Positions 10,537 through 59,025 of a stretch of 64,000 nucleotides of DNA are shown piece after piece. Below the pieces are notes generated by a model. That model was not told where the DNA came from and searched no databases. It saw nothing but the letters and a program-made list of their open reading frames with translations. Within the stretch, counting starts at the first letter, position 1. Each line of letters opens with the position of its first letter. A program made the translations under genes and the position numbers. The DNA is from Devosia sp. (lineage in GTDB: Bacteria; Pseudomonadota; Alphaproteobacteria; Rhizobiales; Devosiaceae). Location of the stretch: NCBI GenBank assembly GCA_030680995.1, contig JAUXUM010000082.1, positions 1,392-65,391 of the forward strand, in the 5' to 3' direction.

Positions 10537-11700
10537 TCAGGCCGCTCCCCGCGCCGCGCGCGGCCGGATGGTATCGTAGCGCGCATTGAGCCAGTTGACG
10601 AAAGGCGGCAGCGGCGCGCCCTCGAACACCACGGCGGCCAGCTTCAGCGTGGCATCGCGGAAGAACGGCACGAAGCCGGGATGCGTCGGCCGCAGATAGG
10701 CCTCACCCATTATCGGCAGCGTGTTGCGGAAGAAGCCGTTCGTCGCGGCGTTGCAGGTATCGGAGAGCCATGCGGTCCGGCTTCCGGGCTGTCCGCCAAA
10801 GGCGACATAGGCGCCGGACTGATAGGCCGGCGAGCACAGGTACATTGCATAGTCGAACGCCGCCTTCGGGCTCGCCGACCTGGCGCTGACCCCGATCCCA
10901 GCGCCACCCAGCAGCGTGCGTGCCGGCTTGCCGGCGGCGACGGCGGGAGCGGCGCCGAACGTGATCGGCCGCGCCGCCTGGCCGCTGGAGTAGTTCACGT
11001 AGTTGAAGAGATAGGGCACGTAGGCGACGTCGTCGCTTGCCGACATGTGGTCGAGGCAGCGGATCGGGTTCCACTGCTTCGAGCCGGGATGGGCCACCCT
11101 CGCAAGGGCCTTGAGATGATCGACGACGATCCTGGCATCGGCCGCCTCGAGGAAATCGCCGTCGCTGTGCCCGGGCGTGAGGCCGAGGCTCGCGGCGACG
11201 GACACAAGGGTGCACATCAGATCCGTCGGAACCGATGGCCAGCCGATGCCGAGGCCGTGCGGCGCGCCCCGATCCGCGAGCGCCAGGACGTCATCGAGCG
11301 TGCGGGGCACGCCGAGGTCGTGCCGTTCGAGCAGGTCGCCGCGCCACGCCGCGGTCTGCGCCGCCGTATCGACCGGCAGGGCCCAGATGCCGCCGTCATA
11401 GGCGTAGGACTGCCAGGAGGCGCCCACCTCGTCGCGATCGAACAGCGCCTTGTCCTCGCTCGTCAGTAACTTGTCGAGGTCTACGAACCATCCGTTCGCG
11501 CAAGCATCGCCCACGAAAGGATGATCGAAAATGACAACATCGTACTTGTCCGCGTAGGTGCCCAAATCGCCCTCGCCGAAGCTGTAGAGGCTTCTCCGGT
11601 CCCAGCGCACCTGCTCGCCGCTCAGCAGGCGATAGGGTTCCACGCTCGCCTCGAGCGGCCCCCAGCAGCGTCGGTGATCCCACGCGATACCCGTAATCAA
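10537..11700 (-). CDS. solute-binding-protein-like protein with no recognisable signal peptide
   Basis: The C-terminal 388 codons of the 632 aa track ORF. A TTG at 11700 is preceded by GGAGG with a 6-nt spacer. The upstream part of the track ORF overlaps the SDR on the other strand. Confidence 0.45.
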   Translation of the reverse strand: MITGIAWDHRRCWGPLEASVEPYRLLSGEQVRWDRRSLYSFGEGDLGTYADKYDVVIFDHPFVGDACANGWFVDLDKLLTSEDKALFDRDEVGASWQSYAYDGGIWALPVDTAAQTAAWRGDLLERHDLGVPRTLDDVLALADRGAPHGLGIGWPSVPTDLMCTLVSVAASLGLTPGHSDGDFLEAADARIVVDHLKALARVAHPGSKQWNPIRCLDHMSASDDVAYVPYLFNYVNYSSGQAARPITFGAAPAVAAGKPARTLLGGAGIGVSARSASPKAAFDYAMYLCSPAYQSGAYVAFGGQPGSRTAWLSDTCNAATNGFFRNTLPIMGEAYLRPTHPGFVPFFRDATLKLAAVVFEGAPLPPFVNWLNARYDTIRPRAARGAA

Positions 11701-11811
11701 GACGTTCCTCCCCTGGCTCGATCGCGGTCCCGATAATGCAATGGAGTTTTTGCTTGTGCAAACCATTTTTATGAGAGAAAAATTGAACACGAATGGGGGG
11801 AGGTTCTGACG

Positions 11812-12582
11812 ATGAAGCGTGTGCTGGTGACCGGAGCTGCGAAGGGGATCGGCAGGGCTGTGGCCGAGCAGTTCGCGCGCGAGGGCGCCGCATTGGTTCT
11901 TCTCGACGTCGACGCCCCGGGTCTCGGCGCTGCCGCGTCCGCCATCGGTGACCTGGGCGCGAAGGTTGAAACCGTTGCGGGTTCGGTCGCGAGCATTGCC
12001 GATTGCGAGGCCGCGGCGGCGCGGGCACGACGTGCCTTCGGCGGGCTCGACGTCCTGTCCCATAATGCCGGCATCCAGCGCTACGGCACGGTGGAAACGA
12101 CGAGCTACGAGCTTTGGAACGAGGTGATCGCCGTCAACCTCACCGGTGCCTTTCAGATTTCCAAGGCGACCATGCCGATGTTGCGGGAAAGCCGGGGCAG
12201 CATCATCCACATGAGTTCGGTGCAAGGCCTCGCGAGCCAGACGGGCGTGGTCGCCTATTCCGTCGCCAAGCACGGCTTGATCGGTCTCGTGCATGCCATG
12301 GCGGTCGATGCCGCTCCCTTCGGCGTGCGCGTCAATGGAGTGGCGCCGGGCTCGGTGGATACGCCAATGCTGCGGGACGCGGTCGCCTCCGCGGAGGACC
12401 CGGACGCATTGTGGCAGGTCATCAACGAGATGCACCCGCTCGGCCGGAGCGCGCGACCCGAAGAGGTGGCCGACCTCGTTAGTTACCTTGCGTCCGACCG
12501 CGCCTCTTTCATCACCGGCGAGATCGTGCGCATCGACGGCGGCATGCTGGCTCGCATCGGCGGTTCGCCCAAGAAGGAATAG
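11812..12582 (+). CDS. SDR-family oxidoreductase
   Basis: VLVTGAAKGIG Rossmann motif, NAG, YSVAKHG (YxxxK), and a strong SD upstream. Confidence 0.85.
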   Translation: MKRVLVTGAAKGIGRAVAEQFAREGAALVLLDVDAPGLGAAASAIGDLGAKVETVAGSVASIADCEAAAARARRAFGGLDVLSHNAGIQRYGTVETTSYELWNEVIAVNLTGAFQISKATMPMLRESRGSIIHMSSVQGLASQTGVVAYSVAKHGLIGLVHAMAVDAAPFGVRVNGVAPGSVDTPMLRDAVASAEDPDALWQVINEMHPLGRSARPEEVADLVSYLASDRASFITGEIVRIDGGMLARIGGSPKKE

Positions 12583-13904: not shown

Positions 13905-14244
13905 AGACGCATGACCGCAATCGCCTTATGCTGGTTAATATGCAATCTCCAAGAGGCTGGCTCGCGGGGAGATTTGCGGAGGTACTGCGGCGTGATTCAA
14001 GATGGCGAGTGATGGAGGTTCGCCATGCGGGTTGCGGCTCGGGTTGATATTGGCGCGCCGCAACTGCGGGTTTTTGCAAGCGAGACCCATGTCCGTCGGA
14101 GTGCGAGAATGGACGCACCGGTTCCAGTCAGCGGGACCTGGTATGAGGTTGCCGAAGCAGCGTTGCCGATCGGGGCTGGCGCGAGGACAATTTGCTACTG
14201 AGTGCATTTTGAAGAATCCGCTAAGCTGAACCGGACGATCCATC

Positions 14245-16560
14245 TTGAACAACGCGCGCTCCACTCCCTCAACATCGCTGGCCGCCGGCGCCCTGCGGAC
14301 TTTCTTGGCGTTTGCCGCAGTCCTCCTCTTCCTTCTCGCATTGCCGTTTCAGGCGTCGGCGGCCGACCGGCTCGAGGAATTCCTCCCAAAGGCGCAGCCC
14401 GGTGAGATCTTCGAAGGCGCTGACCGGTTCGGTGAAATACAGGGCGCGCCGCCGATCGTTCCGGTCTATCGCGGCCATGAAATCGCCGGGTACGTCTATC
14501 TCAATTCGGATTTCACGAATTCGATCGGATATTCCGGCAAGCCGATCCACATCCTGGTAGGCATCGACCCCGAAGGCATAATCCGCGGTTTCAAACTCGT
14601 CGATCACAAGGAGCCGATCGTCCTGATCGGCATTCCCGAGGAAAAGGTCGTAGCCTCGCTGAATTCGTTGGTCGGCAAGGACATGGGCCGCGTGTCGGCT
14701 GGCTCGGAACGCCCCCCGCAGGTCGATATCGTCAGCGGAGCCACAGTTACCGTGCTGGTCATGGGCGACAGCATCGTGCGCTCGGCGGTTCAACTGATCC
14801 GCAGCAATCGGCTGGGCGGAGATGTCGTGGCCGGCGCGGCGCCACCAGTCACGGAAGAAAAGCAACTCGATCTGGCGCGGACCGAAATCCGCGATTGGGA
14901 AACTCTTGTCGGCGATGGCTCGGTGCGAAGCCTGCGCCTCGTCGTCGGCGAAGTCACCGGTGCCTTCGAGCAAGCCGGCCAGATACAGGCAGCGGGACGT
15001 CCCGAGACGGAAAATCCCGAAGACCGTTTCATCGACCTCTATGTGGCGCCAGTCAGCGTACCCTCCATTGGGCTCAGCCTTCTTGGCCAGCGCGGCTACG
15101 AGCGGCTGCGGCAGAAGCTGGCGCCCGGTCAGCACGCCATTGTCGTTGCCGGCGACGGGGCCTATTCCTTCAAGGGATCGGGCTATGTACGGGGCGGTAT
15201 CTTCGATCGCATCGAGTTGCTGCAGGACGGTCAGGGGGTGCGGTTCCGCGACCGCAATCATGCGCGGCTCGGCGACCTCGCCGCTGTGGGCGCGCCGAAG
15301 CTGCGTGAGATCGCGCTGTTCGTCGTTCCCGAGGAATTCGCCTTGAACGTCACCGAGCCCTGGGAACTGCAATTGCTGGTCCAGCGCAGCTTCGGGGCAC
15401 ACCAAAAGGCCACGCTGCCCTTCAATCTCGGTTACACGCTTCCGGATCGGTATGTGGCGGTGGAGCAGGCGCCGGAACCCGCGCCGCGGCCCGAAGCGTC
15501 GCCGACCGGGCCGTCTGCCGTTCAATCCGGCGCCGGGAACGGCGCCGAGCCGTTTCTGGACGAAGAACCGCTCTGGACAAAGATGTGGAAGATGAACGCG
15601 GTGTCGATCGGCATAACCGTGTTCGCGCTCCTTGTTCTGACGGCGATCTTCTTCTTCCAGAACTGGCTGGTGCGGCGCCCCAAGCTGTTCCGTTGGGTTC
15701 GCCGGGGCTACCTGCTGTTCACCTTGGTCTGGCTCGGCTGGCTTGCCAATGCGCAGCTTTCGGTGGTGAACGTGCTCACCTTCGCCAATGCGCTGATCAC
15801 CGACTTCAGCTGGGAGTTCTTCCTCTCCGCACCGCTGGTTTTCGTCCTCTGGGCGGCGGTGGCGGTCGGGCTGCTGTTCTGGGGCCGAGGCCCATTCTGC
15901 GGGTGGCTCTGCCCGTTTGGCGCGCTTCAGGAACTGACCAACAACATCGCCCAGCGGCTGAAGGTGCCGCAGATCGAGGTGCCCTTCTGGCTCCACGAGC
16001 GGCTGTGGCCAATCAAGTACATCATCTTCCTCGGCCTTTTCGGCCTGTCGTTCTATTCGGTGGCGCTGGCGGAAATGTTCGCGGAGGTCGAGCCGTTCAA
16101 AACCTCCATCGTCCTGAAGTTCGCAAGGGAATGGCCCTTTGTGATCTTTGCGCTGACCGTACTGTCGGCCGGACTGTTCATCGAGCGCTTCTATTGCCGC
16201 TATCTCTGTCCCCTCGGCGCGGCCTTGGCCATTCCCGGTCGCATCCGGATGTTCGAATGGCTGAAGCGTTGGCCCGAATGCGGTTCTCCCTGCCAGCGCT
16301 GCGCCAAGGAATGCCCGGTTCAAGCTATCCATCCCGAGGGCCAGATCAACGTCAACGAGTGCATCTACTGCATGAATTGTCAGGAACTCTATCACGACGA
16401 CCAGCGTTGCCCGCGCATGATTCAGGTACGACTCAAACGCGAAAAGTTCGCGGCGCTTTCGTCTCCCTCATTGCGCGACGGCAATAACCGCGGTCCAGCC
16501 AGGCTGGTGATCACTCGCAACGGCGCTCCAACCCGCACCAGCGGGGAAGAGCGCGCCTAG
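14245..16560 (+). CDS. nosR: NosR, membrane-bound regulator/electron donor for N2O reductase
   Basis: 771 aa with a signal/TM segment, a periplasmic FMN-binding-like domain, multiple TM helices, and C-terminal Cys clusters (CPFGALQE, CRYLCPLG, CPVQAIHP..CIYCMNC). Directly precedes nosZ. Confidence 0.9.
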   Translation: MNNARSTPSTSLAAGALRTFLAFAAVLLFLLALPFQASAADRLEEFLPKAQPGEIFEGADRFGEIQGAPPIVPVYRGHEIAGYVYLNSDFTNSIGYSGKPIHILVGIDPEGIIRGFKLVDHKEPIVLIGIPEEKVVASLNSLVGKDMGRVSAGSERPPQVDIVSGATVTVLVMGDSIVRSAVQLIRSNRLGGDVVAGAAPPVTEEKQLDLARTEIRDWETLVGDGSVRSLRLVVGEVTGAFEQAGQIQAAGRPETENPEDRFIDLYVAPVSVPSIGLSLLGQRGYERLRQKLAPGQHAIVVAGDGAYSFKGSGYVRGGIFDRIELLQDGQGVRFRDRNHARLGDLAAVGAPKLREIALFVVPEEFALNVTEPWELQLLVQRSFGAHQKATLPFNLGYTLPDRYVAVEQAPEPAPRPEASPTGPSAVQSGAGNGAEPFLDEEPLWTKMWKMNAVSIGITVFALLVLTAIFFFQNWLVRRPKLFRWVRRGYLLFTLVWLGWLANAQLSVVNVLTFANALITDFSWEFFLSAPLVFVLWAAVAVGLLFWGRGPFCGWLCPFGALQELTNNIAQRLKVPQIEVPFWLHERLWPIKYIIFLGLFGLSFYSVALAEMFAEVEPFKTSIVLKFAREWPFVIFALTVLSAGLFIERFYCRYLCPLGAALAIPGRIRMFEWLKRWPECGSPCQRCAKECPVQAIHPEGQINVNECIYCMNCQELYHDDQRCPRMIQVRLKREKFAALSSPSLRDGNNRGPARLVITRNGAPTRTSGEERA

Positions 16561-44501: not shown

Positions 44502-44518
44502 CGCGCGCCGATGCGCCC

Positions 44519-44716
44519 GAGCGGCCACGGCTCGACTGTTTCGTAGCCTATATGCGGCGCCATCGGCTTTTCGCCGCAGGCCAGCCATTTCCAGAAATCG
44601 GGATAGAACGGAATTCTTGGAAACTCGCGCTTGAGGTTGAGCGCGTATTTTTCGCGGTAGAGCGGGTCGTGCGGCACGCCATAGACGTAGTGGAAGATAT
44701 CGTCCTCGGTGAGCTG
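44519..44716 (-). pseudogene. remnant of the C-terminal domain of a Type ISP-like restriction-modification enzyme
   Basis: The segment QLTEDDIFHYVYGVPHDPLYREKYALNLKREFPRIPFYPDFWKWLACGEKPMAPHIGYETVEPWPL matches the recalled Type_ISP_C signature (DIFyYiYavLHsp.YRe.Ya.nLk.e.PRIP...FW). There is no upstream methylase or helicase part. The remnant abuts the ftsX-like stop. Confidence 0.5.
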
Positions 44717-44727
44717 GCGCTTCCTCC

Positions 44728-44750
44728 CTTCTCCCCTTGAGGGAGAAGGA
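44728..44750. repeat. REP-like hairpin CCTTCTCCC-cttga-GGGAGAAGG
   Basis: 9-bp perfect stem read directly. Related CCCCTTGCGGGAGA...GGGTGAGGGGTC elements occur at 52144-52195 and 55126-55226. Confidence 0.6.
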
Positions 44751-44768
44751 AGACCGGCGCCCGCCTCG

Positions 44769-44883: not shown

Positions 44884-45297
44884 CTATTCTAAGAATTCAA
44901 GGAGCCTTTCGCCCAGTGCCTCTATGTCTTTGGTCTCACACTCCCACACAACAAGGACCTGCCAGCCCATTTCTATCAAGGTGAGGCGGACGCGCTCGTC
45001 GCGCTCTACATTGGTTCGAAGTTTGTTGTTCCAGTAGTCGAGTCGGGTTTTCGGTGCTCTTCCGTCAAGACAACCTGTCTTGTCATGCTGATGCCAAAAG
45101 CAACCATGTACAAAGATGACCTTCCGCCTTGATCCGAAGACGATGTCCGGCTTCCCGGGTAGCCCTTTCTTGTGAAGGCGATAGCGGTAGCCCTTGCAAT
45201 GCAGCCATTTCCGGACACGCAATTCGGGCAGCATATCCCTTGAACGGATAGCCGCCATATTTCTCGATCGCTCAAAGGGGGTCAGCCGATCAGCCAC
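44884..45297 (-). CDS. vsr: very-short-patch repair endonuclease Vsr
   Basis: 137 aa with RSRNMAAIRSRD..PE, GYRYRLH, GKPDIVF and FVHGCFWH motifs. Overlaps the upstream REase stop. Confidence 0.9.
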   Translation of the reverse strand: MADRLTPFERSRNMAAIRSRDMLPELRVRKWLHCKGYRYRLHKKGLPGKPDIVFGSRRKVIFVHGCFWHQHDKTGCLDGRAPKTRLDYWNNKLRTNVERDERVRLTLIEMGWQVLVVWECETKDIEALGERLLEFLE

Positions 45298-46159
45298 GGC
45301 GTTTGAAGAACCGGCTTTCAGCTACGATGGCCCGATCGGCCTGCGTCATTTTGTGCGCAATGTGCTCGTCAGACTCACATTGAGGAAGCCCGAATGCAGC
45401 AATCAGTGAATTGTGATATGCACCCGACAGCAATGCAATACCATCATCGAATAACTGGTCTCGCGCACCGTGATTACCTCGCAGCCGCTTCATGTAGTCC
45501 CGCTGATCGAACAATAACGACTGCACAACTGATCGATGGACTGGATGGTCCAGATTCTCTCTGAAGAAACTTGCGGCACGGAGTGAACCACCTCGCAGCT
45601 TCCTTAGCTCCCTGAATCTTGCCATGTCGATACCTACCCAGCGGCTGTCAGGAAGGCGCTCTTTCTCTATCAGCCAGCGGATGTGCGCTCGGGCGCTTGC
45701 GCTGACAGATCGCTTGGTATCTCGGTTTTCGCCCGGTCGCAGGTATTCGGGCTTCGCTACCATTAGTCCGACCGAACAGTGGCCGAGGGCGTCAGCTATC
45801 AGGAACAAAAGTACAGGTTCCGAGTTCCGGTAAGTCTCCGGCGGAATGGTCCACGTCGTTCCAACCGTGTTTTTGATGTCTACGTCGATGCCATCAATCG
45901 ACAAGTCCCGAATGCCCTTTGGCACATCGATGAAGTCTCGAAAGAAGTGCTCAACTTTCAATCCGACAAAGGTTTTTTCAACATTGTCGAGGTCAACGAT
46001 ACGAGTTCGAGCGGTTCTAACCGGATCTATGACGAAATCTATCGCATCTTGAACGATTTCGGGCATACGAAACCGAAGCCGCTCAACACCACCCGCTCGC
46101 CGCACGATTGCTTCGGCGATTGGTTCCAATATATCGTAGTCAGGGTGTGATCTGTCCAC
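45290..46159 (-). CDS. Type II restriction endonuclease, NaeI-family-like
   Basis: Three segments parallel recalled NaeI blocks: VEKTFVGLKVEHFFRDF..IDGIDVDIKNTVGTTWTIPPE, ENRDTKRSVSASARAHIRWL and DQRDYMKRLRGNHGARD (NaeI: TEKTHMGTLVE..VDCKF..W.LPPE; NRD.K; DDFMKRVRG.GGAR). Lies between the C5-MTase and vsr. Confidence 0.65.
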   Translation of the reverse strand: MDRSHPDYDILEPIAEAIVRRAGGVERLRFRMPEIVQDAIDFVIDPVRTARTRIVDLDNVEKTFVGLKVEHFFRDFIDVPKGIRDLSIDGIDVDIKNTVGTTWTIPPETYRNSEPVLLFLIADALGHCSVGLMVAKPEYLRPGENRDTKRSVSASARAHIRWLIEKERLPDSRWVGIDMARFRELRKLRGGSLRAASFFRENLDHPVHRSVVQSLLFDQRDYMKRLRGNHGARDQLFDDGIALLSGAYHNSLIAAFGLPQCESDEHIAHKMTQADRAIVAESRFFKRRG

Positions 46160-46174
46160 AGAAATCCGCGCAAT

Positions 46175-47143
46175 TCAGGCCAAGGCTCGCACCGCGAATA
46201 TAGTGCGACGCTCCACGGCTGTTCTTAGCCGTTTCGCCACAGCCTCCGCAACCGGTGGTGGAAAGGCGTTGCCAACCTGCCGATAGGCAGCTGTCTTACG
46301 CCCATGAAAATGCCACTCATCGTCGAATCCTTGAATCCGTGCTGCCATTCGAACGGTTAGGCGTGGCATCCCCACAAAGTCCCAGTCGGGCGCTTCTTCG
46401 GCAATCGATCTTCCATCAACGCCAAGTGAGGCCCACGCCTTACGCGCTCTCGTCGGTCCAAGGTCCGGTCCGCCATGCTTCTTGCTTCCACCCACCAGAG
46501 TTGGGGCGATTTCGTTGGCTTGGATGATCCAGCGGCGAGCACGTATCCAGCCTCTTTCCGCCATTAGATCACCTATCGCCTGACCGACGGTAGGCGCGTC
46601 ATGCGGCATCGGCGTTGGCCATTCGAAGGCGTCTTTTATGTCGTTTCTAAGCGCAACTATCACGACGCGTGGCCGCAATTGGGGCACGCCGAAATCTGAC
46701 GCATTTAGAAGTCGCCAGTGTGTCTCATATCCCAGCTTGGCAAGCGCACCCTTAATGAAACCTCGGTAATCCTCAAAGACCGCATCAAGGAAGCCCCGAA
46801 CATTTTCGATCATAACAGCTTTGGGTCTTGTCTCATCGACAAGGCGAATGGCAGCGGGGAATAGATTTCTCTCATCGTCTGCACCAAGCTGCTTTCCTGC
46901 TATCGAAAAGGGCGGGCATGGCAGACCGCCAGCAAGCAGATCGACACCCCTGTAACCAGTGCCGTCAAACTGATTCAAATCTTGCTCATGGATCGTCCAG
47001 TCCGGCCTGTTGAGACGGAGAGTCTTGCAGCAGTCGGCGTCAAGCTCGACGGCGCCCTTGTGGGAGAACCCGGCTAGTTCAAGTCCCCGCGCCTGGCCGC
47101 CAGCTCCAGCGCAAACTTCAAGTGAAGAAAGATTTCCCGTCAT
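46175..47143 (-). CDS. DNA (cytosine-5)-methyltransferase
   Basis: Motif I CAGAGG, IV GLPCPPFS, VI ENVRG, VIII QLRPRV, X GNAFPPPV. Confidence 0.9.
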   Translation of the reverse strand: MTGNLSSLEVCAGAGGQARGLELAGFSHKGAVELDADCCKTLRLNRPDWTIHEQDLNQFDGTGYRGVDLLAGGLPCPPFSIAGKQLGADDERNLFPAAIRLVDETRPKAVMIENVRGFLDAVFEDYRGFIKGALAKLGYETHWRLLNASDFGVPQLRPRVVIVALRNDIKDAFEWPTPMPHDAPTVGQAIGDLMAERGWIRARRWIIQANEIAPTLVGGSKKHGGPDLGPTRARKAWASLGVDGRSIAEEAPDWDFVGMPRLTVRMAARIQGFDDEWHFHGRKTAAYRQVGNAFPPPVAEAVAKRLRTAVERRTIFAVRALA

Positions 47144-50450: not shown

Positions 50451-51812
50451 TTATTTGATCGCGTCCCAGCTGGCCTGGATCTGGTCGGCGACTTCCCGGG
50501 CGGACTTGCCGCCGACGAAATCGACCATGCCGGTCCAGAAGCTGCCGGCGCCGACCGCGCCGGGCATCAGGTCCGAACCGTCGAAGCGGAAGGTGGTCGC
50601 CTGGAGCAGGATCTGGCCTTCGCCCTTGAGCGTATCGTTGCCGTAGGTTTCGACATTGGCCGACTTCAGGGTCGAAAGGAACCCCGACTGGGCCATCCAG
50701 ATCTCGTTGGAAATCGGATTGCCGAGGAAGTCGATGAAGGCGCGGGCCGCACCGGAATCCTTGGTGATGGTGGCCAGCGTACCGGCGCCGAGCACCGGCT
50801 TGCCGAGGTCCTTGCCGGCGAAGGCCGGGAAGTAGAAGAAGTCGGCGTCTTCGCCCAGCACCGTGCCCTCGGGGAAGAAGGACGGGATGAACGAAGCCTG
50901 GTGGTGCATGAAGCAGGCCGGCGGCACCGAGAACAGGCCGAGCGGGCTTTCGCGGAAGTCGGTGGTGCCCACGGCCGCGGCGCCGCCGGCGACCTTCTTG
51001 TCGTCCTTGGCGAACCAGCCGAAGAGCTCGAGCGCCTCGACGATCTTGGGGTCGTTGAACTTCAGATCGTTGGAGACCCAGGCGTCGTAGTCCTCGGGGC
51101 TCTGGGTGCGGAGCATGATGTCTTCCACCCAGTCGGTGGCCGGCCAGCCGGTGGCGCCGCCCGAACCCAGCCCGATGCACCAGGGCGTGTTGCCGTCGGC
51201 GACCATCTTCTCGGTCAGGGCCTGCAGGTCCTCGAAGGTCTGCGGCACTTCATAGCCGGCGTCGGCGAAGTTGTCGGGCGAGTACCAGACCAGCGACTTC
51301 AGGTCGGACTTGTAGGGCACCGCATAGAAGGTCGCATTGCCGTTCTTGTCGTTATAGGTGCCCAGGCTGACGAAGCTCTCGCCGGCCGCGTGGTTGTCGA
51401 GCACGAACTGCCTGGCTTCGTCGCCGAGCGGCACCAGGTAGCCCTTGGACGCCATGTCGGCGAGCAGGCCGGGCTGCGGCAGGATGGTGACGTTGGCCGG
51501 CGAGCCGGCGGCGGCGTCGATCTGGGCCTGCTGTTCGTAGTTTTCCGAGGAGCCGTATTCGACGGCGATGCCGGTGGCGTCGGTGAAGTAGGCGAGCACG
51601 GTCAGGAACTGCTCCTGGTCGCCGCCTTCGCGCCACGGACCCCAGATGGTGAGCTTCTGGCCTTCGAGACCCTTGTGGGAGTCCGCGAAGGTCTGGAGCG
51701 CATCCCAGCTGAAAGCGCCCTCGCCCTTGGGGAATTTGAAATCCTGGGCATTGGCGCCGGAAGCCAGGGCAATAGCAATGACGGAAACCCCCGCCAGAAG
51801 GTATTTGTGCAT
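50451..51812 (-). CDS. extracellular sugar-binding protein (CUT1)
   Basis: MHKYLLAGVSVIAIALASGANA signal peptide. GGGAGGA SD before the ATG at 51812. Confidence 0.85.
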   Translation of the reverse strand: MHKYLLAGVSVIAIALASGANAQDFKFPKGEGAFSWDALQTFADSHKGLEGQKLTIWGPWREGGDQEQFLTVLAYFTDATGIAVEYGSSENYEQQAQIDAAAGSPANVTILPQPGLLADMASKGYLVPLGDEARQFVLDNHAAGESFVSLGTYNDKNGNATFYAVPYKSDLKSLVWYSPDNFADAGYEVPQTFEDLQALTEKMVADGNTPWCIGLGSGGATGWPATDWVEDIMLRTQSPEDYDAWVSNDLKFNDPKIVEALELFGWFAKDDKKVAGGAAAVGTTDFRESPLGLFSVPPACFMHHQASFIPSFFPEGTVLGEDADFFYFPAFAGKDLGKPVLGAGTLATITKDSGAARAFIDFLGNPISNEIWMAQSGFLSTLKSANVETYGNDTLKGEGQILLQATTFRFDGSDLMPGAVGAGSFWTGMVDFVGGKSAREVADQIQASWDAIK

Positions 51813-51962
51813 GTAGTCCTCCCATCGCACATTCAGTCTTTCCGGTTCCGAAGGTTCGAACCCGGTCTTGTTTTCTTCCCGCAAGATGCATCCGGATCGG
51901 CGCTAGCGCCCCGGGCACCGTGCGGCAGGACGCGGCCTGCGCGCCCCCGCCTGCCCGGCGTT

Positions 51963-51993
51963 TCCAAAACGTTTTGGAACCAAAACGTTTTGG
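51963..51993. promoter_or_regulatory. two tandem palindromes CCAAAACGTTTTGG (LacI-family-type operators)
   Basis: TCCAAAACGTTTTGGA (51963-51978, a perfect 16-mer) and CCAAAACGTTTTGG (51980-51993), with centres 16 bp apart. They lie 150-180 nt upstream of the SBP gene. Confidence 0.5.
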
Positions 51994-52143
51994 GGGCCGA
52001 TTAATGAGCCTCGCGGGGCAGTTAGCGGTGGGTCAACGTCGCACAAAGCGCCGATCTTGCCAAGCCGGGTTTTGCGGCGCCCGGCGCCTATGGACGGGTA
52101 CGTACCTCAGGGGGCGAAGTCTTGGCCACTCTCGGCCGGGCCA

Positions 52144-52195
52144 CCCTTCCCCTTGCGGGAGAGGGGCGGCGCGTCAGCGCCGGGTGAGGGGTCGG
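52144..52195. repeat. REP-like element CCCTTCCCCTTGCGGGAGAGGGG...GGGTGAGGGGTCGG
   Basis: Shares both ends with 55126-55226 and the hairpin core with 44728-44750. Confidence 0.6.
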
Positions 52196-52332
52196 CGCGG
52201 GACCTGGCGCAGCCCAAGTCCGTCGCGCCGCCGGGTGGGGGGTATCGCCTGGCCCGTAGCCCGCTCGCCCCTCCCCGCCTTGCCAAACCGCCGAACGGCG
52301 CTAGGGTGGGGCGCGGGCGCGGGGGCAGTTCA

Positions 52333-52607
52333 TTGAGTTCGACAATCGAAGCATTCATAGCGCGCTGGCAGGGCCAGGAGGGCGGAGCGGAACGGGCCAA
52401 CTACGCGCTGTTCCTTTCCGAGCTCTGCGACGTGCTGGAAGTGCCGCGGCCCGCCCCGAACCCGCCTCGGCGGCGCACGAGCACAACGACTATGTGTTCG
52501 AGCGGGGCGGTTCAATCCGAAGCGAGGGCGGCGAGAGAAGCGCCAACAAGCGGATCGACCTCTACAAGAAGAACTACTTCATCCTCGAAGCCAAGCGGTC
52601 GCGGCAA
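52333..52607 (+). pseudogene. N-terminal remnant of a large Type IIG/IIL-like (MmeI-family-like) methyltransferase/restriction enzyme; frameshifted and truncated
   Basis: (L)[39 protein letters not shown] continues, after a one-nucleotide frame shift near 52450 (from the frame of track ORF 52057-52644 into that of 52494-53075), as [50 protein letters not shown] (D...EAK nuclease-like motif). The homology stops at about 52607. Confidence 0.55.
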
Positions 52608-52658
52608 CTACGAGTGTTCATGGCTTGTTCACGTCACGTTTTGATGCCATTGTTTCTT

Positions 52659-53075
52659 ATGGACACCCTTACGTCAGAGCAACGCAGCGAGCGGATGGGG
52701 CGCGTGAGGGGGCGCGACACCGGCACGGAAATGCGAGTTCGTCGACTTCTCTACCGACTTGGCTATCGCTACCGACTTCACGCCCGCGACCTTCCAGGAT
52801 GTCCGGACATTGTGTTTCGGCGGCGGAAAATCGCCGTGTTCGTGCACGGTTGTTTTTGGCATCGTCACACGGATCCAAACTGCAAGCTGGCTCGGCTACC
52901 CAAGTCGCGGTTGGATTTCTGGCTGCCAAAGCTTGAAGGCAATCGCCTGCGTGACCTCGAACGCCAGCGTGCGCTGAACGAACTCGGATGGCGGGTCCTG
53001 ATTGTCTGGGAATGCCAGACCCGGAACACAAGCGTGCTTGAAACAGTAATCCGTGAGAAATTGGGGGAACCATGA
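52659..53075 (+). CDS. vsr: very-short-patch repair endonuclease Vsr (second copy)
   Basis: SEQRSERMGRVRGRDT..E, GYRYRLH, GCPDIVF and FVHGCFWH. About 45% aa identity by eye to the copy at 44884-45297. Confidence 0.9.
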   Translation: MDTLTSEQRSERMGRVRGRDTGTEMRVRRLLYRLGYRYRLHARDLPGCPDIVFRRRKIAVFVHGCFWHRHTDPNCKLARLPKSRLDFWLPKLEGNRLRDLERQRALNELGWRVLIVWECQTRNTSVLETVIREKLGEP

Positions 53076-54283
53076 AGTCTATCGAGCTATTTGCGGGTGC
53101 CGGCGGCCTTGGGATGGGGGTGTCGCTTGCGGGCTTCGAGCCAATTCAGGTGGTCGAATGGGATAGTTATTGCTGTGACACCATTCGCGAGAATCGTGAG
53201 CGTGGAATAGCACCCATGGCTTCGTGGCCGCTTACGCAAGCTGATGTTCGCGCCGTTGATTTCGGAAGCAACGAAGGCAAAGTCGAGCTGGTCACCGGTG
53301 GCCCTCCATGTCAGCCGTTTTCCATAGGCGGCAGGCACCGCGCGTTCAACGATGCGCGTGACATGTTTCCTCAGGCCGTGCGCGCTCTGCGAGAGGTCAA
53401 GCCAAAGGCTTTCATCTTCGAGAATGTGAAAGGCCTTACTCGGCAGACATTCCGGAACTACTTCGAATACATCCGACTCCAAATGATACATCCAGAAGTC
53501 ACGGCTCGACACGATGAAAGTTGGGCGGGCCATCACGCCCGCTTGGAGCAGCACGAGAGTAGCGGCGGCCGATCGGGTCTGAGCTACAATGTGATAGTCC
53601 ATCTTGCTAACGCCGCCGACTATGGGGTGCCTCAACGTCGCGAAAGAGTTTTCTTCGTCGGCTTTCGGAGCGATCTTGGAATCGCATGGCGTTTTCCCGC
53701 TGAAACACATTCAGCTGACGCTCTCGCTTGGGCCCAGTATCGCGATGGCGAATATTGGGACCGCCACCGCGCCGGATGGCGCGAACGAGCGACATCGGAG
53801 CGCGCCCGCGTGCGGGCCTGGCGTCTTCGGGAACGACCGGCAACCGTCCCCTGGCGCACGGTAAGGGATGCCATCGCCGACCTACCCGATCCAGAAATAG
53901 GCTCGGCGCCACATCGATATTTGAACCACCGCTTTCAACCAGGAGCGCGATCTTATGCGGGACACACAGGGAGCCCGTTCGACGAACCGGCAAAGACGCT
54001 GAAGGCGGGTGTTCACGGTGTGCCTGGCGGCGAAAACATGTTGTTGAAGCCAGACGGCTCGGTCCGTTATTTTACCGTGAGGGAGAGCGCTCGTCTCCAA
54101 ACATTCCCGGACGAGTTCCGATTCCACGGTTCCTGGACGGAATCCATGCGCCAGTTGGGTAACGCCGTCCCTGTAACTCTCGCGCGAATTGTCGCAAACG
54201 ACGTAATGCGCCATTTGGAGAACATGCTTGACGATCGGACCCTACAATCCGCTGGACAAACTAAGCCTCGCGCGAAGCATTGA
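53072..54283 (+). CDS. DNA (cytosine-5)-methyltransferase
   Basis: Motif I FAGAGG, IV GGPPCQPFS, VI FENVKG, VIII PQRRERVF, X GNAVPV. ATGA overlap with vsr. Confidence 0.9.
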   Translation: MKSIELFAGAGGLGMGVSLAGFEPIQVVEWDSYCCDTIRENRERGIAPMASWPLTQADVRAVDFGSNEGKVELVTGGPPCQPFSIGGRHRAFNDARDMFPQAVRALREVKPKAFIFENVKGLTRQTFRNYFEYIRLQMIHPEVTARHDESWAGHHARLEQHESSGGRSGLSYNVIVHLANAADYGVPQRRERVFFVGFRSDLGIAWRFPAETHSADALAWAQYRDGEYWDRHRAGWRERATSERARVRAWRLRERPATVPWRTVRDAIADLPDPEIGSAPHRYLNHRFQPGARSYAGHTGSPFDEPAKTLKAGVHGVPGGENMLLKPDGSVRYFTVRESARLQTFPDEFRFHGSWTESMRQLGNAVPVTLARIVANDVMRHLENMLDDRTLQSAGQTKPRAKH

Positions 54284-54911
54284 GGCGGAGATTCTGTCGC
54301 GCGAGATCAAGCCGATGGACACAACCGAGATTATTTCCGGCGCGGGAGTGTACGTCATTTACTATCGCGGAGGCTTCGAGCCGTACTCGGTCCTTTCCGA
54401 GGCAAACAAGGATGACTGGAACCGCCCAATTTACGTTGGAAAGGCAATTCCAAAGGGCGGCCGGAAAGGCGGAATCAGGCGCGATGCCGCAGCTCGCGGC
54501 ACGGCACTTGGATCGCGGTTGCGCAAGCATGCCGAGTCCATTCGCGCGACCAGCAATTTGAAGATTGGCGACTTTGTATTTCGCCACATCGTGCTCGACG
54601 ACATCTGGATACCTCTTGGTGAGAATATCCTTATCGAGACGTTCAAGCCGCTTTGGAACGTTGCTATCGAGGGCTTTGGCATCAATGACCCGGGCGCGGG
54701 ACGGCTAAAGCAAATGCGCTCACCGTGGGATGTTCTACACCCAGGCCGCGGATACGCGGATCGCTTGACCGGGGGAGGACCTGACCTCGAGGCAGTTCTC
54801 GGTCGTGTGGAAGACTACTGCCAAGGGCGTCCGCTCAAACCGCTGCCCAAACGGCTGGAAGAAGCTGCTAAGATCGCCAGTGAGGATGACCGAGGTGAGG
54901 TAGAGGGCTAG
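54228..54911 (+). CDS. GIY-YIG-type Type II restriction endonuclease, Eco29kI-family-like
   Basis: GVYVIYY...PIYVGKAIPKGGRKG (GIY-YIG-like) and the C-terminal GINDPGAGRLKQMRSPWDVLHPGR resemble the recalled Eco29kI/NgoMIII family. A TTG start overlaps the MTase by 56 nt. Alternative ATG at 54315. Confidence 0.6.
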   Translation: MTIGPYNPLDKLSLARSIEAEILSREIKPMDTTEIISGAGVYVIYYRGGFEPYSVLSEANKDDWNRPIYVGKAIPKGGRKGGIRRDAAARGTALGSRLRKHAESIRATSNLKIGDFVFRHIVLDDIWIPLGENILIETFKPLWNVAIEGFGINDPGAGRLKQMRSPWDVLHPGRGYADRLTGGGPDLEAVLGRVEDYCQGRPLKPLPKRLEEAAKIASEDDRGEVEG

Positions 54912-54934
54912 GCAAAGCAAGATTGAACCAATCG

Positions 54935-55096
54935 CGCCGTTTCGACTCCTTCCCCTTCCCCTTCCCCGATCCCGACGAGCGACTGAAGGCCGACATCGCC
55001 GAAAAGCTCGATGCGCACCGCAAGTCGGTACAGGCGACGCATCCCGACATCACGCTGACCGAGATGTACAATTTGCTGGAGAAGCTGCGGGCGGGT
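54935..55096 (+). pseudogene. C-terminal remnant of the same Type IIG/IIL-like enzyme family
   Basis: RRFDSFPFPFPDPDERLKADIAEKLDAHRKSVQATHPDITLTEMYNLLEKLRAG matches the recalled C-terminal signature (CFETFPFP...L..HR......P.LTLT.LYN.L). It is followed by REP sequence rather than the rest of the gene. Confidence 0.5.
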
Positions 55097-55125
55097 TCCA
55101 AGCCGGCCGCATCCACCGGCTCCCC

Positions 55126-55226
55126 CTCTCCCCTTGCGGGACTTCGAGGCGGTAGCGAAGCCATCATTCGCTCCGGTGGAGCGAATGAAGCCGAAGAAGG
55201 TGCCCGAAGGGCGGGTGAGGGGTCGG
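55126..55226. repeat. REP-like composite element (CTCTCCCCTTGCGGGA...GGGTGAGGGGTCGG with an internal hairpin CATTCGC/GCGAATG)
   Basis: Ends match 52144-52195. Read directly. Confidence 0.55.
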
Positions 55227-55243
55227 GGAGGGTGGCAAGAGAC

Positions 55244-55266
55244 CCCTCATCCGCCCCCGGATCAAG
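55244..55266. repeat. REP-like hairpin CCCCCGGATCAAGTCCGGGGGTC
   Basis: Exact reverse complement of 47974-47996. Confidence 0.75.
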
Positions 55267-55350
55267 TCCGGGGGTCCCTCCCCTCGAGGGCATTTATATA
55301 CTTGACAAAGCATAGGGCAAGATTCATAACAGGGACAAGGAGTTACCGCC

Positions 55351-56301
55351 ATGCGCCTCGATCACCCGGTTTTCACCAACGTTGACGCAGCCCGCGCCCA
55401 TCTTGAGGCGCAGCGCTGGCCCAATGGGCCGGTGTGCCCGCACTGCGGCAATGTCGATCAGGCCAAGATCACGGCCATGCAGGGCAAGGCGCATCGCCCT
55501 GGCCTCTACAATTGCAAGGAATGCCGCGAACAGTTCTCGGTCACGGTCGGAACCGTGTTCGAACGTTCCAAGATCGCGCTCAATGTGTGGATGCTGGCGA
55601 CGTTCCTGCTTTCGTCCAGCAAGAAGGGCATGAGCGCGCATCAGCTGCATCGCATGTTAGGCGTCACGTATAAGACCGCTTGGTTCATGGCGCACCGTAT
55701 CCGCGAAGCAATGGCACCGCTCAAGTCCGAAACCGGCCCATTGGGCGGCGAAGGCAAGATCGTTGAAGCCGATACTACCTACATCGGCGGCAAAGAGAAA
55801 AACAAGCACGCTGGCAAGCGCGACGGCAAGGCCATCGGCGGCATGGGCAAGCAGATCGTCCACACTCTCGTTGAGCGCGGCGGTCACGCCCGCTCGCACC
55901 ATATTGCCAACGTCACCGGCGACACGTTGCGTCCGATCCTCTTTACTCAGGTTGACCGCAAGTCGTCGCTGATGACGGATACCGCTGGCGGCTATCACCG
56001 CTTGGGCAAGGAATTTGCCCGTCACGAAACCGTCGATCATGGCGCTGACGAATACGTGCGCGGCGATGCCTACTCAAACACGGTCGAAGGCTATTTCAGC
56101 ATCCTCAAGCGCGGCATCATCGGCATCTATCACCATGTCAGCGAGGCGCACCTTATGCGTTACCTTGCCGAGTTCGATTTCCGCTACAACCATCGTTCCG
56201 CGCTCAAGATCAGCGATACGGAGCGCACCGATGCGGCACTGGCTGGCATCGGAGGCAAACGTTTGACCTATCGGCGGATTGGTGAAGGCGCGAACGCCTA
56301 A
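55351..56301 (+). CDS. IS1595-family transposase
   Basis: N-terminal Zn-ribbon CPHCG...CKEC, the segment KKGMSAHQLHRMLGVTYKTAWFMAHRIREAM, and a DDE-type core (EADTTYIGG; MTDTAGGY; NTVEGYFSILKRG). AAGGAG SD upstream. Confidence 0.85.
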   Translation: MRLDHPVFTNVDAARAHLEAQRWPNGPVCPHCGNVDQAKITAMQGKAHRPGLYNCKECREQFSVTVGTVFERSKIALNVWMLATFLLSSSKKGMSAHQLHRMLGVTYKTAWFMAHRIREAMAPLKSETGPLGGEGKIVEADTTYIGGKEKNKHAGKRDGKAIGGMGKQIVHTLVERGGHARSHHIANVTGDTLRPILFTQVDRKSSLMTDTAGGYHRLGKEFARHETVDHGADEYVRGDAYSNTVEGYFSILKRGIIGIYHHVSEAHLMRYLAEFDFRYNHRSALKISDTERTDAALAGIGGKRLTYRRIGEGANA

Positions 56302-56869
56302 GCAAAGGCTCAAGAAGTTGAAGCAAGTCGGCAAGAAGTGGAAAACTTCCCGCCGACTCGACTCCAAGTAGTCATCGGCCTAATTCTGGATTCGCAACCC
56401 GAGGCAATGGGGGCTGGCGGACACCAGCTTAGCCGGAGCAGGTTGCAGTCCTTGTTCGAGACTGGAGCGCAGCCCTCAGACGGCCAAGCGCGAAAATCTC
56501 TCGATGTCCCGAGGACACTATGGATGCCGGTGCGCACCGATGCCCATGGGCCGATACACCAGCCAACGGCGGCAAAACCGTTCTGACTGGCATGACTCAC
56601 GAAACCCCAAAGGTTCCGTGGCCACGGGCCTAGGATTTCACCATGAAACCCAAGGTCTCCATCAAGTGGAAATATGACGTCGCCCTATGCCTCTTTGGCC
56701 TTGCGGCTACGCTTCACGGGCTCGCTGCGCTCGTGACTGCTTTCCACTCCTAAGCGGGGAGCGCTCGGCTTAGGCCGGGCGCTTTCGCTATGCGGCTTCG
56801 GCGGACTCGTGAGCATCCGCTTTAGCGTCTCGTTGAACTTGGTTTCGTCGTCTTTGGAGGAATTACCCA

Positions 56870-57517
56870 ATGTCCGAACCCATACCGCCGGAGTTGCTGG
56901 AACGACTTAAGACCCTCCATGAGGTTCGCGTCCCTCTCACAGTGGGTAGGGCAACCGTAGCATGGAACACGCTTTCTGGCTGCATCTTCGATCTGTTCAG
57001 TATGCTCTCTGAGATGGGGACCGACGCTGCCAAGGCGACGTTCTTCACGGTTGCCTCCGACCGTTCCCAACGAGACATGGTGAGCAACCTGGTTGAGCTA
57101 CGCATCGGCAAGCTCAACCCAAAACTCGCGAAAGATGCCCAGACCCTCCTAGGTGAGGCAAACAAACTCGCCGGGAAGCGCAACGACATCCTGCATGTGG
57201 TGTTCATTGACGACCTCGACCCCAGCAAGGTCAGTCAACTTCAGGAACGAGGGCATCTGCGCGGTAAGGCGGGGGCCGACCTGCTAGACGCAATAGATAC
57301 GTTCGCTATCGCGTCCCTCGATCTCTGTCTCAAGATTCAGCATCTACGGGGGGACCTGCTAGACATGCCTCTCTACCAAAACCGAATGATGGCCGTAGAA
57401 CTTCTTCGACGTAACGCTCAGCGAAAAGCGGCAGAATTGGCCAATCCGAGGGAATACGGTCTCCTAGATTTTCCTGCCACCACGCCACCGTCGCCGCTAG
57501 AAGACCAGCAGGAATAG
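56870..57517 (+). CDS. hypothetical helical protein with a HEPN-type Rx4H motif (candidate RNase/toxin), passenger of the IS element
   Basis: 215 aa with a strong GGAGGA SD. The motif K-R104-N-D-I-L-H109 (nt 57179-57196) is preceded by helical LLGEANKLAG. No family could be confirmed without a search. Confidence 0.45.
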   Translation: MSEPIPPELLERLKTLHEVRVPLTVGRATVAWNTLSGCIFDLFSMLSEMGTDAAKATFFTVASDRSQRDMVSNLVELRIGKLNPKLAKDAQTLLGEANKLAGKRNDILHVVFIDDLDPSKVSQLQERGHLRGKAGADLLDAIDTFAIASLDLCLKIQHLRGDLLDMPLYQNRMMAVELLRRNAQRKAAELANPREYGLLDFPATTPPSPLEDQQE

Positions 57518-57644
57518 CGGACGCATCTGTGGCGTCTGAAGAAACGTCGGCCTGTCGGCTCGAATCACTAGCAGGGGAGTTTTGCTTTGTCACGTATATA
57601 CTTCCCCCCTCGAGGGGAGGGGACCCGACTGAGAGTCTTCACCC

Positions 57645-58961
57645 TCACCGTTTATTGTGCAGCAGCCCCTGGAACGCCCGGTAGCTCGATTTGGGGGTGC
57701 GCTGCTGGGTGGCATAATCCACATGGACGATGCCGAAGCGCTTGTCGTAGCCCTCGGCCCATTCGTAATTGTCGAGCAGCGACCAGGCGAAATAGCCGCG
57801 CACGTCGGCGCCCTGTTCCTGCGCGGCGCGCACGGCTTTCAAGTGATCGTCGTAGTATCCGACGCGGCGCGGATCGTCGGCGCCCTCGACCTCGGCCATG
57901 CCGTTCTCGGTGACGTAGAGCGGCACCTTGGTGTAGTCGCGCGAGACGCGGACGAGCAGTTCCGTCAGCCCCTGCGGGTAGATCTCCCAGCCGATATCGG
58001 TCTTTTCCAGCGGCCCGTCGACCGCCTTGGCCGGGAAGCCGGGATTTGCCGGATCGTGCCGCAGGAGCGAGCGCGAATAGTAGTTGATGCCGGCCCAGTC
58101 GAGCGGGGCGGAAACCACTTCCATGTCGCTCTCGAAGCCCCGCGGCAGATGCGGGGCGAAGAGCTTGACGATGTCGGCCGGGTACTGGCCCTTGTAGAGC
58201 CCGTCCAGATACCAGCGGTTGAAGATACCGTCGAAAAGATCGGAGGCCTGCTGGTCTTCGGGCTTGTCCGAGGCCGGTTCGCATTTCTGCAGGTTGGTGA
58301 CGATGCCCAGGTTCTTGGCGCCTTCGGCCCGCAGCGCGCCGATGGCGGTGCCATGGGCGAAGAGCACGTGATGCATGGCGCGGGCGGCGGCGCGGACATC
58401 GCGATGACCCGGCGCGTGCTTGCCGAGGAAGTGGCTGAGGAAGGCCACGCACCAGGGCTCGTTGATGGTGGCGGTGGCATGCAACCGGTCGCCGAAATTG
58501 CGGGCGACCAGCGCGGCGTAGTCGGCGAACCAGTTGGCGATGTCGCGGTTCATCCAGCCGCCCTGGTCCTGCAGCGCGCTGGGCAGGTCCCAATGATAGA
58601 GCGTGGCGAAGGGCTTGATGCCGCGCGCCAGCATGCCGTCGATCAGCCGGTCGTAGAAATCGAGGCCGGCCTGGTTGACCGCGCCGGTGCCATCCGGGAT
58701 CAGCCGCGGCCAGGCGAAGGAGAAGCGGTAGCCATCGAAACCGCCGTCGCGGATCAGATCGAGGTCTTCGGGCCAGCGGTGGTAGTGGTCACAGGCGACG
58801 GCGCCGGTGTCGCCGTTCTTGACGTTGCCGGGGGTGGCCGAAAACGTGTCCCAGATCGAAGGGCCGCGGCCGCCGGTCTGGCCGCCTTCGATCTGGTAGG
58901 CGGCGGTGGCGGCGCCGAAAACGAAATTAGGGCCGAACTCGCTGCGGTTCGATGAAAACAT
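57645..58961 (-). CDS. GH1 beta-glucosidase
   Basis: FVFGAATAAYQIEG, acid/base TINEPW, nucleophile YVTENG. GGAGGG SD before the ATG at 58961. Confidence 0.9.
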   Translation of the reverse strand: MFSSNRSEFGPNFVFGAATAAYQIEGGQTGGRGPSIWDTFSATPGNVKNGDTGAVACDHYHRWPEDLDLIRDGGFDGYRFSFAWPRLIPDGTGAVNQAGLDFYDRLIDGMLARGIKPFATLYHWDLPSALQDQGGWMNRDIANWFADYAALVARNFGDRLHATATINEPWCVAFLSHFLGKHAPGHRDVRAAARAMHHVLFAHGTAIGALRAEGAKNLGIVTNLQKCEPASDKPEDQQASDLFDGIFNRWYLDGLYKGQYPADIVKLFAPHLPRGFESDMEVVSAPLDWAGINYYSRSLLRHDPANPGFPAKAVDGPLEKTDIGWEIYPQGLTELLVRVSRDYTKVPLYVTENGMAEVEGADDPRRVGYYDDHLKAVRAAQEQGADVRGYFAWSLLDNYEWAEGYDKRFGIVHVDYATQQRTPKSSYRAFQGLLHNKR

Positions 58962-59025
58962 TGTCGCGCCCTCCACGCTGAAATCCGATGTTCAGAAACC
59001 GTTCATCCGTGTGGCGACGGCATGA

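Follow-up and report, generated by a model that had tools for sequence, protein, structure and literature searches.

A vsr, C5 methyltransferase and Eco29kI-family nuclease cassette between two stubs of an MmeI-family gene in Devosia

Genes and features at the locus

The locus described here lies in a stretch of 64,000 nucleotides (nt) from a Devosia sp. contig (JAUXUM010000082.1), the whole of which is referred to below as the window. It consists of a compact three-gene restriction-modification (R-M) cassette situated between two stubs of a larger R-M gene of the MmeI family (Type IIL). The features on which the argument is built are given below; designations such as L009 denote the loci compared.

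52333..52607, + strand: N-terminal stub of the MmeI-family Type IIL gene, residues ~1-93, frameshifted, with the D-x-EAK nuclease motif (tblastn against full-length proteins, DNA alignment)
52443..52447, + strand: 5-nt insertion that shifts the frame of the N-terminal stub (alignment with L003, L009, L007, L010, and L013 and pairwise differences; exact placement within GCCGCGGCCCGCCCCG ambiguous)
52608..52658, + strand: 51-nt leader from the left junction to the vsr start, with no homology to the old gene or to relatives of the cassette
52659..53075, + strand: vsr, very-short-patch repair endonuclease (TIGR00632, E 1.7e-42, 144.5 bits, cut-off 97.85; PF03852, E 2.9e-28; FVHGCFWHRH motif)
53072..54283, + strand: cytosine-5 (C5) DNA methyltransferase, dcm (PF00145, E 1.5e-57, 195.9 bits; TIGR00675, E 1.6e-50, 172.6 bits, cut-off 100.65)
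54228..54911, + strand: Eco29kI-family GIY-YIG restriction endonuclease (PF09517 RE_Eco29kI, E 1.4e-58, 197.8 bits, cut-off 30.8)
54930..55096, + strand: internal C-proximal stub of the MmeI-family gene, residues ~921-983, with an extra TTCCCC unit and a 9-nt deletion (tblastn, DNA alignment)

Two stubs of one MmeI-family gene

A preliminary description of this DNA took the two outer pieces for same-strand remnants, in N-to-C order, of one large Type IIG/IIL-like enzyme. According to tblastn, this assignment holds, as the pieces correspond to residues 7-93 and 921-983 of the same MmeI-family proteins. The N-terminal stub aligns with residues 7-42 and 42-93 of a 1,151-residue 'DNA methyltransferase' from a Roseibium plasmid (joint E 5e-25), while the span 54920-55102 aligns with residues 921-977 of that protein and residues 922-983 of its 1,145-residue relative from a Paracoccus plasmid (E 1.6e-14). 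Compared with L009, a Devosia metagenome-assembled genome (MAG) copy of 1,127 residues that is the closest intact relative found, the N-terminal stub shows 92% and 85% amino acid (aa) identity (joint E 2e-35) and the C-proximal stub shows 77% (E 1e-22). When each stub was searched against plasmid records by tblastn, both fell under one coding sequence (CDS), on one strand and ~2.8 kb apart (e.g., NZ_CP114788.1), and at least 20 plasmid records have one CDS matched by both. These comparisons support the derivation of both remnants, in collinear order, from a single MmeI-family Type IIL gene.

The N-terminal stub is read in two frames, from the TTG at 52333 to 52443 and then from 52446 to 52607. 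The shift between them, reported previously as a single nucleotide, is actually the 5-nt insertion near 52443-52447, and the alignment reveals a further in-frame insertion of 3 nt relative to close relatives. As for the downstream stub (about 54930-55096), its translation reads NQSRRFDSFPFPFPDPDERLKADIAEKLDAHRKSVQATHPDITLTEMYNLLEKLRAG. It was regarded as the C-terminal piece of the enzyme, and it does represent a C-proximal part of the same protein; however, it is an internal segment and not the gene's end, with ~165 further codons absent. Similarly, the two pieces were expected to map to residues about 1-95 and to the C-terminal domain, which agrees with the position of the former (7-93) but not of the latter, since residues 921-983 straddle the end of the target recognition domain (TRD).

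Enzymes of the MmeI family (Type IIL) modify one strand with m6A and cleave about 20 nt from their site. The relatives of the stubs carry the domains MmeI_N, MmeI_hel, MmeI_Mtase, and MmeI_TRD, which in L009 occupy residues 4-232 (MmeI_N), 238-309 (helical spacer), 404-662 (methyltransferase), and 718-911 (TRD) of 1,127. Against PF20464 (MmeI_N, a nuclease domain of the PD-(D/E)XK type) the N-terminal stub alone scores 22.1 bits, which is under the cut-off of 27 (E 2e-4 on the first 42 aa), in comparison with 92.2 bits for the N-terminus of L009. What the window retains is thus under half of the nuclease domain plus a short piece across the TRD end, and the interval lost between the stubs (residues ~94-920) comprises the other part of the nuclease domain along with the helical spacer, methyltransferase, and TRD. 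This confirms the missing methyltransferase core noted in the preliminary description: in tblastn with the full-length Roseibium and Paracoccus proteins and L009, residues ~94-920 and ~984-1151 have no counterpart in the entire window, which also lacks the final ~165 codons of the old gene. With only ~93 and ~63 residues left, no MmeI-like enzyme function is possible, and the gene is a relic. With the MmeI family as published (Morgan et al. 2009, PMC2731913; Callahan et al. 2016, PMC4833311) the ancestral gene shares the order of MmeI_N, helical spacer, methyltransferase, and TRD, and the D...EAK motif is kept in the stub; it differs in that the relatives found here are 1,127-1,151 aa long, with a long C-terminal extension.

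The cassette

Profile matches and nucleotide composition bear out the earlier report of a lower-GC cassette of ~2.3 kb carrying vsr, a C5 methyltransferase, and an Eco29kI-like nuclease. The cassette has a GC fraction of 0.578, compared with 0.637 in the window as a whole and 0.645-0.655 in the flanks; the lower-GC stretch spans about 52350 to 57600. The vsr stop and the dcm start overlap via ATGA, and dcm and the nuclease gene overlap by 56 nt, which suggests that the three genes form one operon. The methyltransferase contains FAGAGG, PCQ, ENV, QRR, and GNAV (catalytic motifs I, IV, VI, VIII, and X). According to phmmer, the nuclease matches the Eco29kI structures 3mx4, 3nic, and 3mx1 (E 7e-38), with 3mx4 aligned over residues 31-197 and roughly 45% identical positions as counted by eye in this alignment. 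Among relatives of the nuclease, conservation starts at residue 1.

Eco29kI is encoded on a plasmid, with R preceding M, and is not known to include a vsr gene; the present cassette has the gene order vsr-M-R. Common to both are the RE_Eco29kI family, whose Pfam threshold is passed here, 167 aligned residues including the GxY...YxG region, and a C5 methyltransferase partner. Recognition of CCGCGG by the cassette nuclease would be a guess by analogy with this relative. The site occurs 60 times in the window versus 85 ± 9 expected, a mild deficit that is weak, non-specific, and uninformative on specificity.

In a metagenome scan the vsr-M-R module recurs in unrelated contexts, with methyltransferase identity of 65-76% and no MmeI remnants. 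One such relative lies between housekeeping genes, another beside ArdC and Mrr-helicase genes, and the similarity to these relatives stops at the coding boundaries. The module is therefore a self-contained mobile unit without a mobility gene of its own. An exact-protein look-up of the C5 methyltransferase returned one 1.9-kb contig only.

Junctions

Homology to the old gene ends at 52607, 51 nt before the vsr ATG at 52659, and resumes at ~54930, 18 nt past the nuclease stop. Because the ends of the victim gene survive, both junctions are placed within a few codons. The balance at the locus is ~2.5 kb lost and 2.32 kb gained. As already stated in the preliminary description, the remnant frame is open into vsr: the second frame of the N-terminal stub continues into it as the open reading frame (ORF) 52494-53075. 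The left junction is also covered by L008, an independent assembly whose identity to the window is 100% over 52516-54405; this argues against an assembly chimera at that point. A repeat search found no direct or inverted repeats and no target duplication bracketing the cassette (52608-54929), and the sole transposase near it belongs to a separate insertion sequence (IS) with its own target duplication.

A span of ~30 codons around the motif FDPFPFP (CCCCTTCCCCTTCCCC) contains end points of several independent rearrangements, in the window (54940-54970), L013 (about 12074-12110), L092 (about 7260-7290), L103 (about 8040-8070), and protein P0123. A cassette junction is among them, as are an inversion and two deletions, one of which is 12 aa long. 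The TTCCCC unit is present three times here in the window versus twice in its relatives. The cluster could be a fragile pyrimidine-rich tract or a matter of ascertainment. In L053 (Acetobacteraceae MAG, 3467-3818) a stub ends at residue 93, as does that of the window, 85 nt from the contig end.

A sibling haplotype and turnover of R-M systems

Four metagenome contigs from different sequencing runs (L003-L006), mutually 99.8% identical, match the window at 98% identity over 50565-52536 and then diverge inside the stub at codon ~65. Beyond this point, 55 nt precede a different Type IIG gene, which looks complete (PADLOC REase_MTase_IIG, E 1.9e-67). Near-identical backgrounds with different R-M systems behind the same stub would follow the pattern of allelic substitution (PMC2853133).

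Such substitution of R-M genes is already documented, and the locus would add another example. By the count of Furuta, Abe and Kobayashi (2010, Nucleic Acids Res 38:2428, PMC2853133), R-M substitution accounts for 116 locus pairs, among them a Type II methyltransferase versus a Type IIG gene in Rhodopseudomonas palustris. In their cases, related genomes with common flanks hold non-homologous R-M genes at one place, a pattern that the window and L003-L006, with their 98% identical left flank, probably follow. In contrast, here both ends of the replaced gene survive, so that the event is placed within a few codons of one gene, and one gene family is struck repeatedly by different cargos. R-M insertion with long target duplication, to the extent that it is presented in the same paper (PMC2853133) with reference to an earlier comparison of H. 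pylori genomes, likewise involves a minimal R-M unit that enters the chromosome without a mobility gene; however, no target duplication is present here, and the flanking pieces are different parts of a gene.

The preliminary description also suggested defence-gene turnover at a hot spot. The sibling haplotype, with its different Type IIG gene behind a 98% identical flank, supports this suggestion, as does a second case of a cassette beside a remnant within the window. There, a low-GC cassette adjoins a fragment of a Type IIG gene:

44513..44752, - strand: 80-residue fragment of a Type ISP-like Type IIG enzyme (PF18135, E 4.7e-22)
44884..45297, - strand: Vsr, in the low-GC cassette beside the Type IIG fragment
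45290..46159, - strand: NaeI-like nuclease, in the same cassette
46175..47143, - strand: C5 methyltransferase, in the same cassette, the second C5 methyltransferase of the window

In L106, an MmeI stub is followed by a Type IIG gene with which this fragment shares 71% aa and 80% nt identity.

Recurrence in other copies of the gene family

Recurrence was assessed in 13 loci, namely, the window, two loci from a genome survey (L013 and L072), and ten short-ORF contexts, the latter being chosen as the short N-terminal ORFs most similar to the stub of the window. R-M cargo beside a stub was found in the following loci.

Window: vsr, C5 methyltransferase, and Eco29kI-family nuclease
L003: Type IIG gene
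L007: C5 methyltransferase and MTaX1 protein, on the opposite strand
L013 (Devosia MAG): N4/N6 methyltransferase and BglII-like nuclease, between an N stub (to ~125) and a C stub (from ~908)
L106: Type IIG gene with ISP-like domains
L107: EcoRII, Vsr, and C5 methyltransferase, on the opposite strand

Six independent stubs of one family thus adjoin six different R-M systems, with one IS insertion among the truncated copies examined. The other truncated copies are frameshift or nonsense pseudogenes (L089, L094, and L108), the IS insertion (L072), an internal deletion (L092), and a bare truncation (L090/L091).

In the genome survey, which is unbiased and comprises 80 loci, 52 copies are uninterrupted, 8 are cut by contig ends, and R-M cargo is present in L013 only. 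Twelve R-M probe proteins searched against these 80 loci (~10 kb on each side of the gene start) detected, beyond the L013 cargo, no R-M genes near an intact copy; the only two matches were weak and lay inside the MmeI-family gene itself (L012 and L066). This control indicates that intact copies are not situated among R-M genes of the probed kinds and that the cargo appears together with the truncation. The base rate of cargo beside a stub is uncertain, since the short-ORF list is biased by construction.

This bias also affects two candidate generalizations. Given short queries (94 and 130 aa), the protein search yielded proteins of about the query length only, so that abundant full-length homologues were not shown while other remnants surfaced. 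Massive recurrent truncation, suggested by a first search that returned proteins of 68-163 aa only, was rejected as an effect of this length bias, given the 52 uninterrupted copies among the 80 survey loci. A hot spot of N-side breakpoints at codons 63-125 was rejected as ascertainment, because only ORFs of at most 163 aa containing the whole query could be listed. Separately, L088 has a second partial N-terminal copy (residues 10-228, at 14199-14843) downstream of the intact gene.

Defence genes reportedly pile up and replace one another where insertion costs nothing, an idea of defence islands as a 'genomic sink' that is associated with Makarova et al. (2011). The present case differs in that the 'place' is one gene family at several chromosomal loci, and intact copies are not in R-M-rich neighbourhoods. 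It is conceivable, although rather doubtful, that large single-polypeptide R-M genes (those of the MmeI family and perhaps ISP-like Type IIG genes) are preferred targets in Devosia and its relatives and are repeatedly overwritten by compact R-M cassettes. Succession would then be aimed at a gene and not at a chromosomal position, and its driver may be either a real mechanistic bias or recombination via conserved gene ends.

Proposed history and alternative explanations

As a whole, the locus is best explained by replacement of the interior of a resident Type IIL gene by the three-gene cassette, which is considered highly probable. The collinear stubs around an intact cassette support the same proposal in the preliminary description, that one R-M system replaced the interior of another. 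The order of events can be inferred as follows. A lineage, probably Devosia, would once have held a full-length MmeI-family Type IIL gene, encoding a single polypeptide, between a sugar-transporter operon and a beta-glucosidase gene. A foreign 2.3-kb fragment with little beyond the vsr, C5 methyltransferase, and nuclease genes would have entered this gene in the orientation of the gene itself, presumably by illegitimate, non-homologous or microhomology-mediated recombination, and its entry would have removed ~2.5 kb of the interior (codons ~94-920). Other changes would include the 5-nt insertion and the TTCCCC expansion in the stubs, the arrival of a repetitive extragenic palindromic (REP) or miniature inverted-repeat transposable element (MITE) after codon ~983, and the loss of the last ~165 codons, possibly by REP-REP recombination. 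An IS1595-family element would have jumped into the REP hairpin just downstream. The cassette would now act as an ordinary Type IIP system, if active at present: the methyltransferase would mark a palindromic site with m5C, the nuclease would cut unmarked foreign DNA, and Vsr would repair the T:G mismatches that arise from m5C deamination.

Several points weigh against this history. No donor sequence, and no close relative in which the gene is still intact at this locus, was found against which microhomology at the junctions could be read, and replacement in a single step is only one possible course. The best relatives of the right side of the L003 haplotype are only 85% identical, and its right flank was not recovered. 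The old gene may have been already dead through a REP insertion before the cassette arrived. Finally, no sigma-70-like promoter was predicted in the stub, the leader, or upstream of them by a scan not tuned to Alphaproteobacteria. With no promoter-like site and only 51 nt between the junction and vsr, the operon is most likely transcribed from the promoter of the dead gene through the stub, i.e., the cassette would have captured a promoter.

The same arrangement might also have emerged in two or more steps, by simple insertion of the cassette in or beside an intact MmeI-family gene and later deletions that trimmed the interior to the cassette edges. Internal deletions are frequent in the family (L054, L055, L077, and L092), the missing 3' end of the present gene is itself due to a separate event, and selection would halt deletions at the edge of a functional cassette. 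However, such a course requires two deletions that arose independently and both stopped within 18-51 nt of where the cassette's coding sequence ends, and in the other stub-plus-cargo cases the cargo also starts a few tens of nt from the junction, which is simpler if minimal cassettes integrate; stepwise trimming is therefore regarded as unlikely, though worth keeping in mind. Another explanation is that the stub-cassette-stub unit was built elsewhere and imported whole, with the stubs serving as homology arms that converted a resident intact allele. The unit is only 2.8 kb long, and at the DNA level the window matches L009, L010, L011, and L013 in the two stubs only, apart from a REP element in L010. 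In addition, the window and its sibling, which otherwise diverge by ~0.8-1.9%, reach ~8% over the final ~100 nt ahead of the sibling's junction, and at one site the window has the family-consensus state while L003 and L009 have another state in common. These figures, however, have to be set against the clustering of the extra divergence in a few complex changes, which fits neutral decay of a pseudogene, and against the relatives of the cassette that occur elsewhere without stubs. Moreover, stubs beside different cargos are mutually as diverged as intact genes (55-87% aa identity), which suggests independent origins rather than one spreading scaffold. Import of a ready-made unit thus seems quite improbable.

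As for the notion that the short pieces are chance or REP-derived ORFs, or that the contig is an assembly chimera, the only point in its favour is the GC-rich REP-like sequence that flanks both pieces and can be translated into open frames. The preliminary description named hits to unrelated protein families or REP-derived ORFs as the findings that would contradict it, and instead both pieces matched a single family, collinearly and on the expected strand, with E values from 1e-10 down to 2e-35 and with 77-92% identity to one and the same intact protein of Devosia. Together with the common CDS in the plasmid records and the independent contig identical across the left junction, this refutes such an origin, which is considered extremely improbable.

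The movement of R-M cassettes without mobility genes between genomes is still poorly understood, and in this respect interior replacement in a gene whose ends survive is of use: with a sibling haplotype and several parallel cases in public data, reconstruction of donor and recipient and a census of junctions are feasible. A genuine preference of R-M cargo for resident R-M genes would indicate a specific route of defence turnover, with promoter capture, homology arms, and repair at restriction-induced breaks as candidates; if there is no such preference, the locus is still a tidy textbook example of defence-gene succession. In either case it represents a clean but not unprecedented footprint of bacteria swapping anti-phage defences.

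Flanking genes, REP/MITE-like elements and the IS1595-family element

The surroundings of the stubs and the cassette contain the following features.

50451..51884, - strand: gene for the substrate-binding protein of an ABC sugar transporter, left flank (ORF; core context outside the island; 99.8% aa identical in L003-L006)
52141..52201, no strand: left copy of a GC-rich REP/MITE-like repeat, about 130 nt upstream of the stub (direct repeats D2, D3, and D9 pair with 55122-55232)
55097..55290, no strand: REP/MITE-like element after ...LEKLRAG (alignment with L010; repeats D2, D3, D9, and I5; sequences P0122, P0123, and P0126)
55291..57606, + strand: IS1595-family element in the loop of the REP hairpin (NF033547, 187.6 bits, cut-off 75; PF12762 and PF12760; DDE transposase with an N-terminal zinc ribbon, gene at 55351-56301)
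57607..57626, no strand: right half of the split REP palindrome (inverted repeat I2), 18 nt from the beta-glucosidase stop
57645..58976, - strand: beta-glucosidase gene, right flank

A 14-nt palindrome, CCAAAACGTTTTGG, occurs twice without mismatch at 51964-51993, with 2 nt in between, in the region upstream of the sugar-binding protein gene, and both copies are kept in L003-L006. Judging by their sequence, the paired CCAAAACGTTTTGG palindromes look like a putative regulator binding site.

Exact copies of the REP motif pair occur in the 64-kb window only at 52141-52201 and 55122-55232, with near-copies at 44732 and 55241. The two exact copies are in direct orientation and bracket the stub-cassette-stub unit, so that recombination between them would excise the whole unit. 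In several lineages, the MmeI-family gene has a GC-rich REP/MITE-like insertion (translated as ...SPLAGEG...) directly behind LEKLR(A/T/E)G, namely, in the window (55097-55290), in L010, which is another Devosia copy (11575-11758), in L042 (3540-3750), in P0122, P0123, and P0126, and in L013 (about 12290-12340). Either a hot spot of insertion or a loop that tolerates it may account for this recurrent site. Since L010 and other lineages have a similar element at exactly the same position, its insertion is independent of the cassette.

The IS1595-family element is a simple, later, and separate insertion just downstream of the old gene. Its ends, read directly, are terminal inverted repeats ...TATATAC(T/G)TGACAAAGC... 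with the duplicated target CCCTCGAGGG, and its left end matches IS copies of Mesorhizobium plasmids from query base 4. An IS-mediated deletion was considered as the cause of the missing 3' end and ruled out: the target duplication is intact, which means that the IS did not delete the 3' end of the gene and that this loss was a separate event.

The element also carries a passenger, ORF215 (56870-57517, 215 aa), which belongs to a small unannotated family of 156 representative clusters. It has no match in Pfam, NCBIfam, or PADLOC, and its predicted structure, which is all-helical with a pLDDT (predicted local distance difference test) of 89, has no significant match in PDB. The invariant R104-N105-x3-H109 resembles the Rx4-6H motif of HEPN domains, a hint taken from the motif only.

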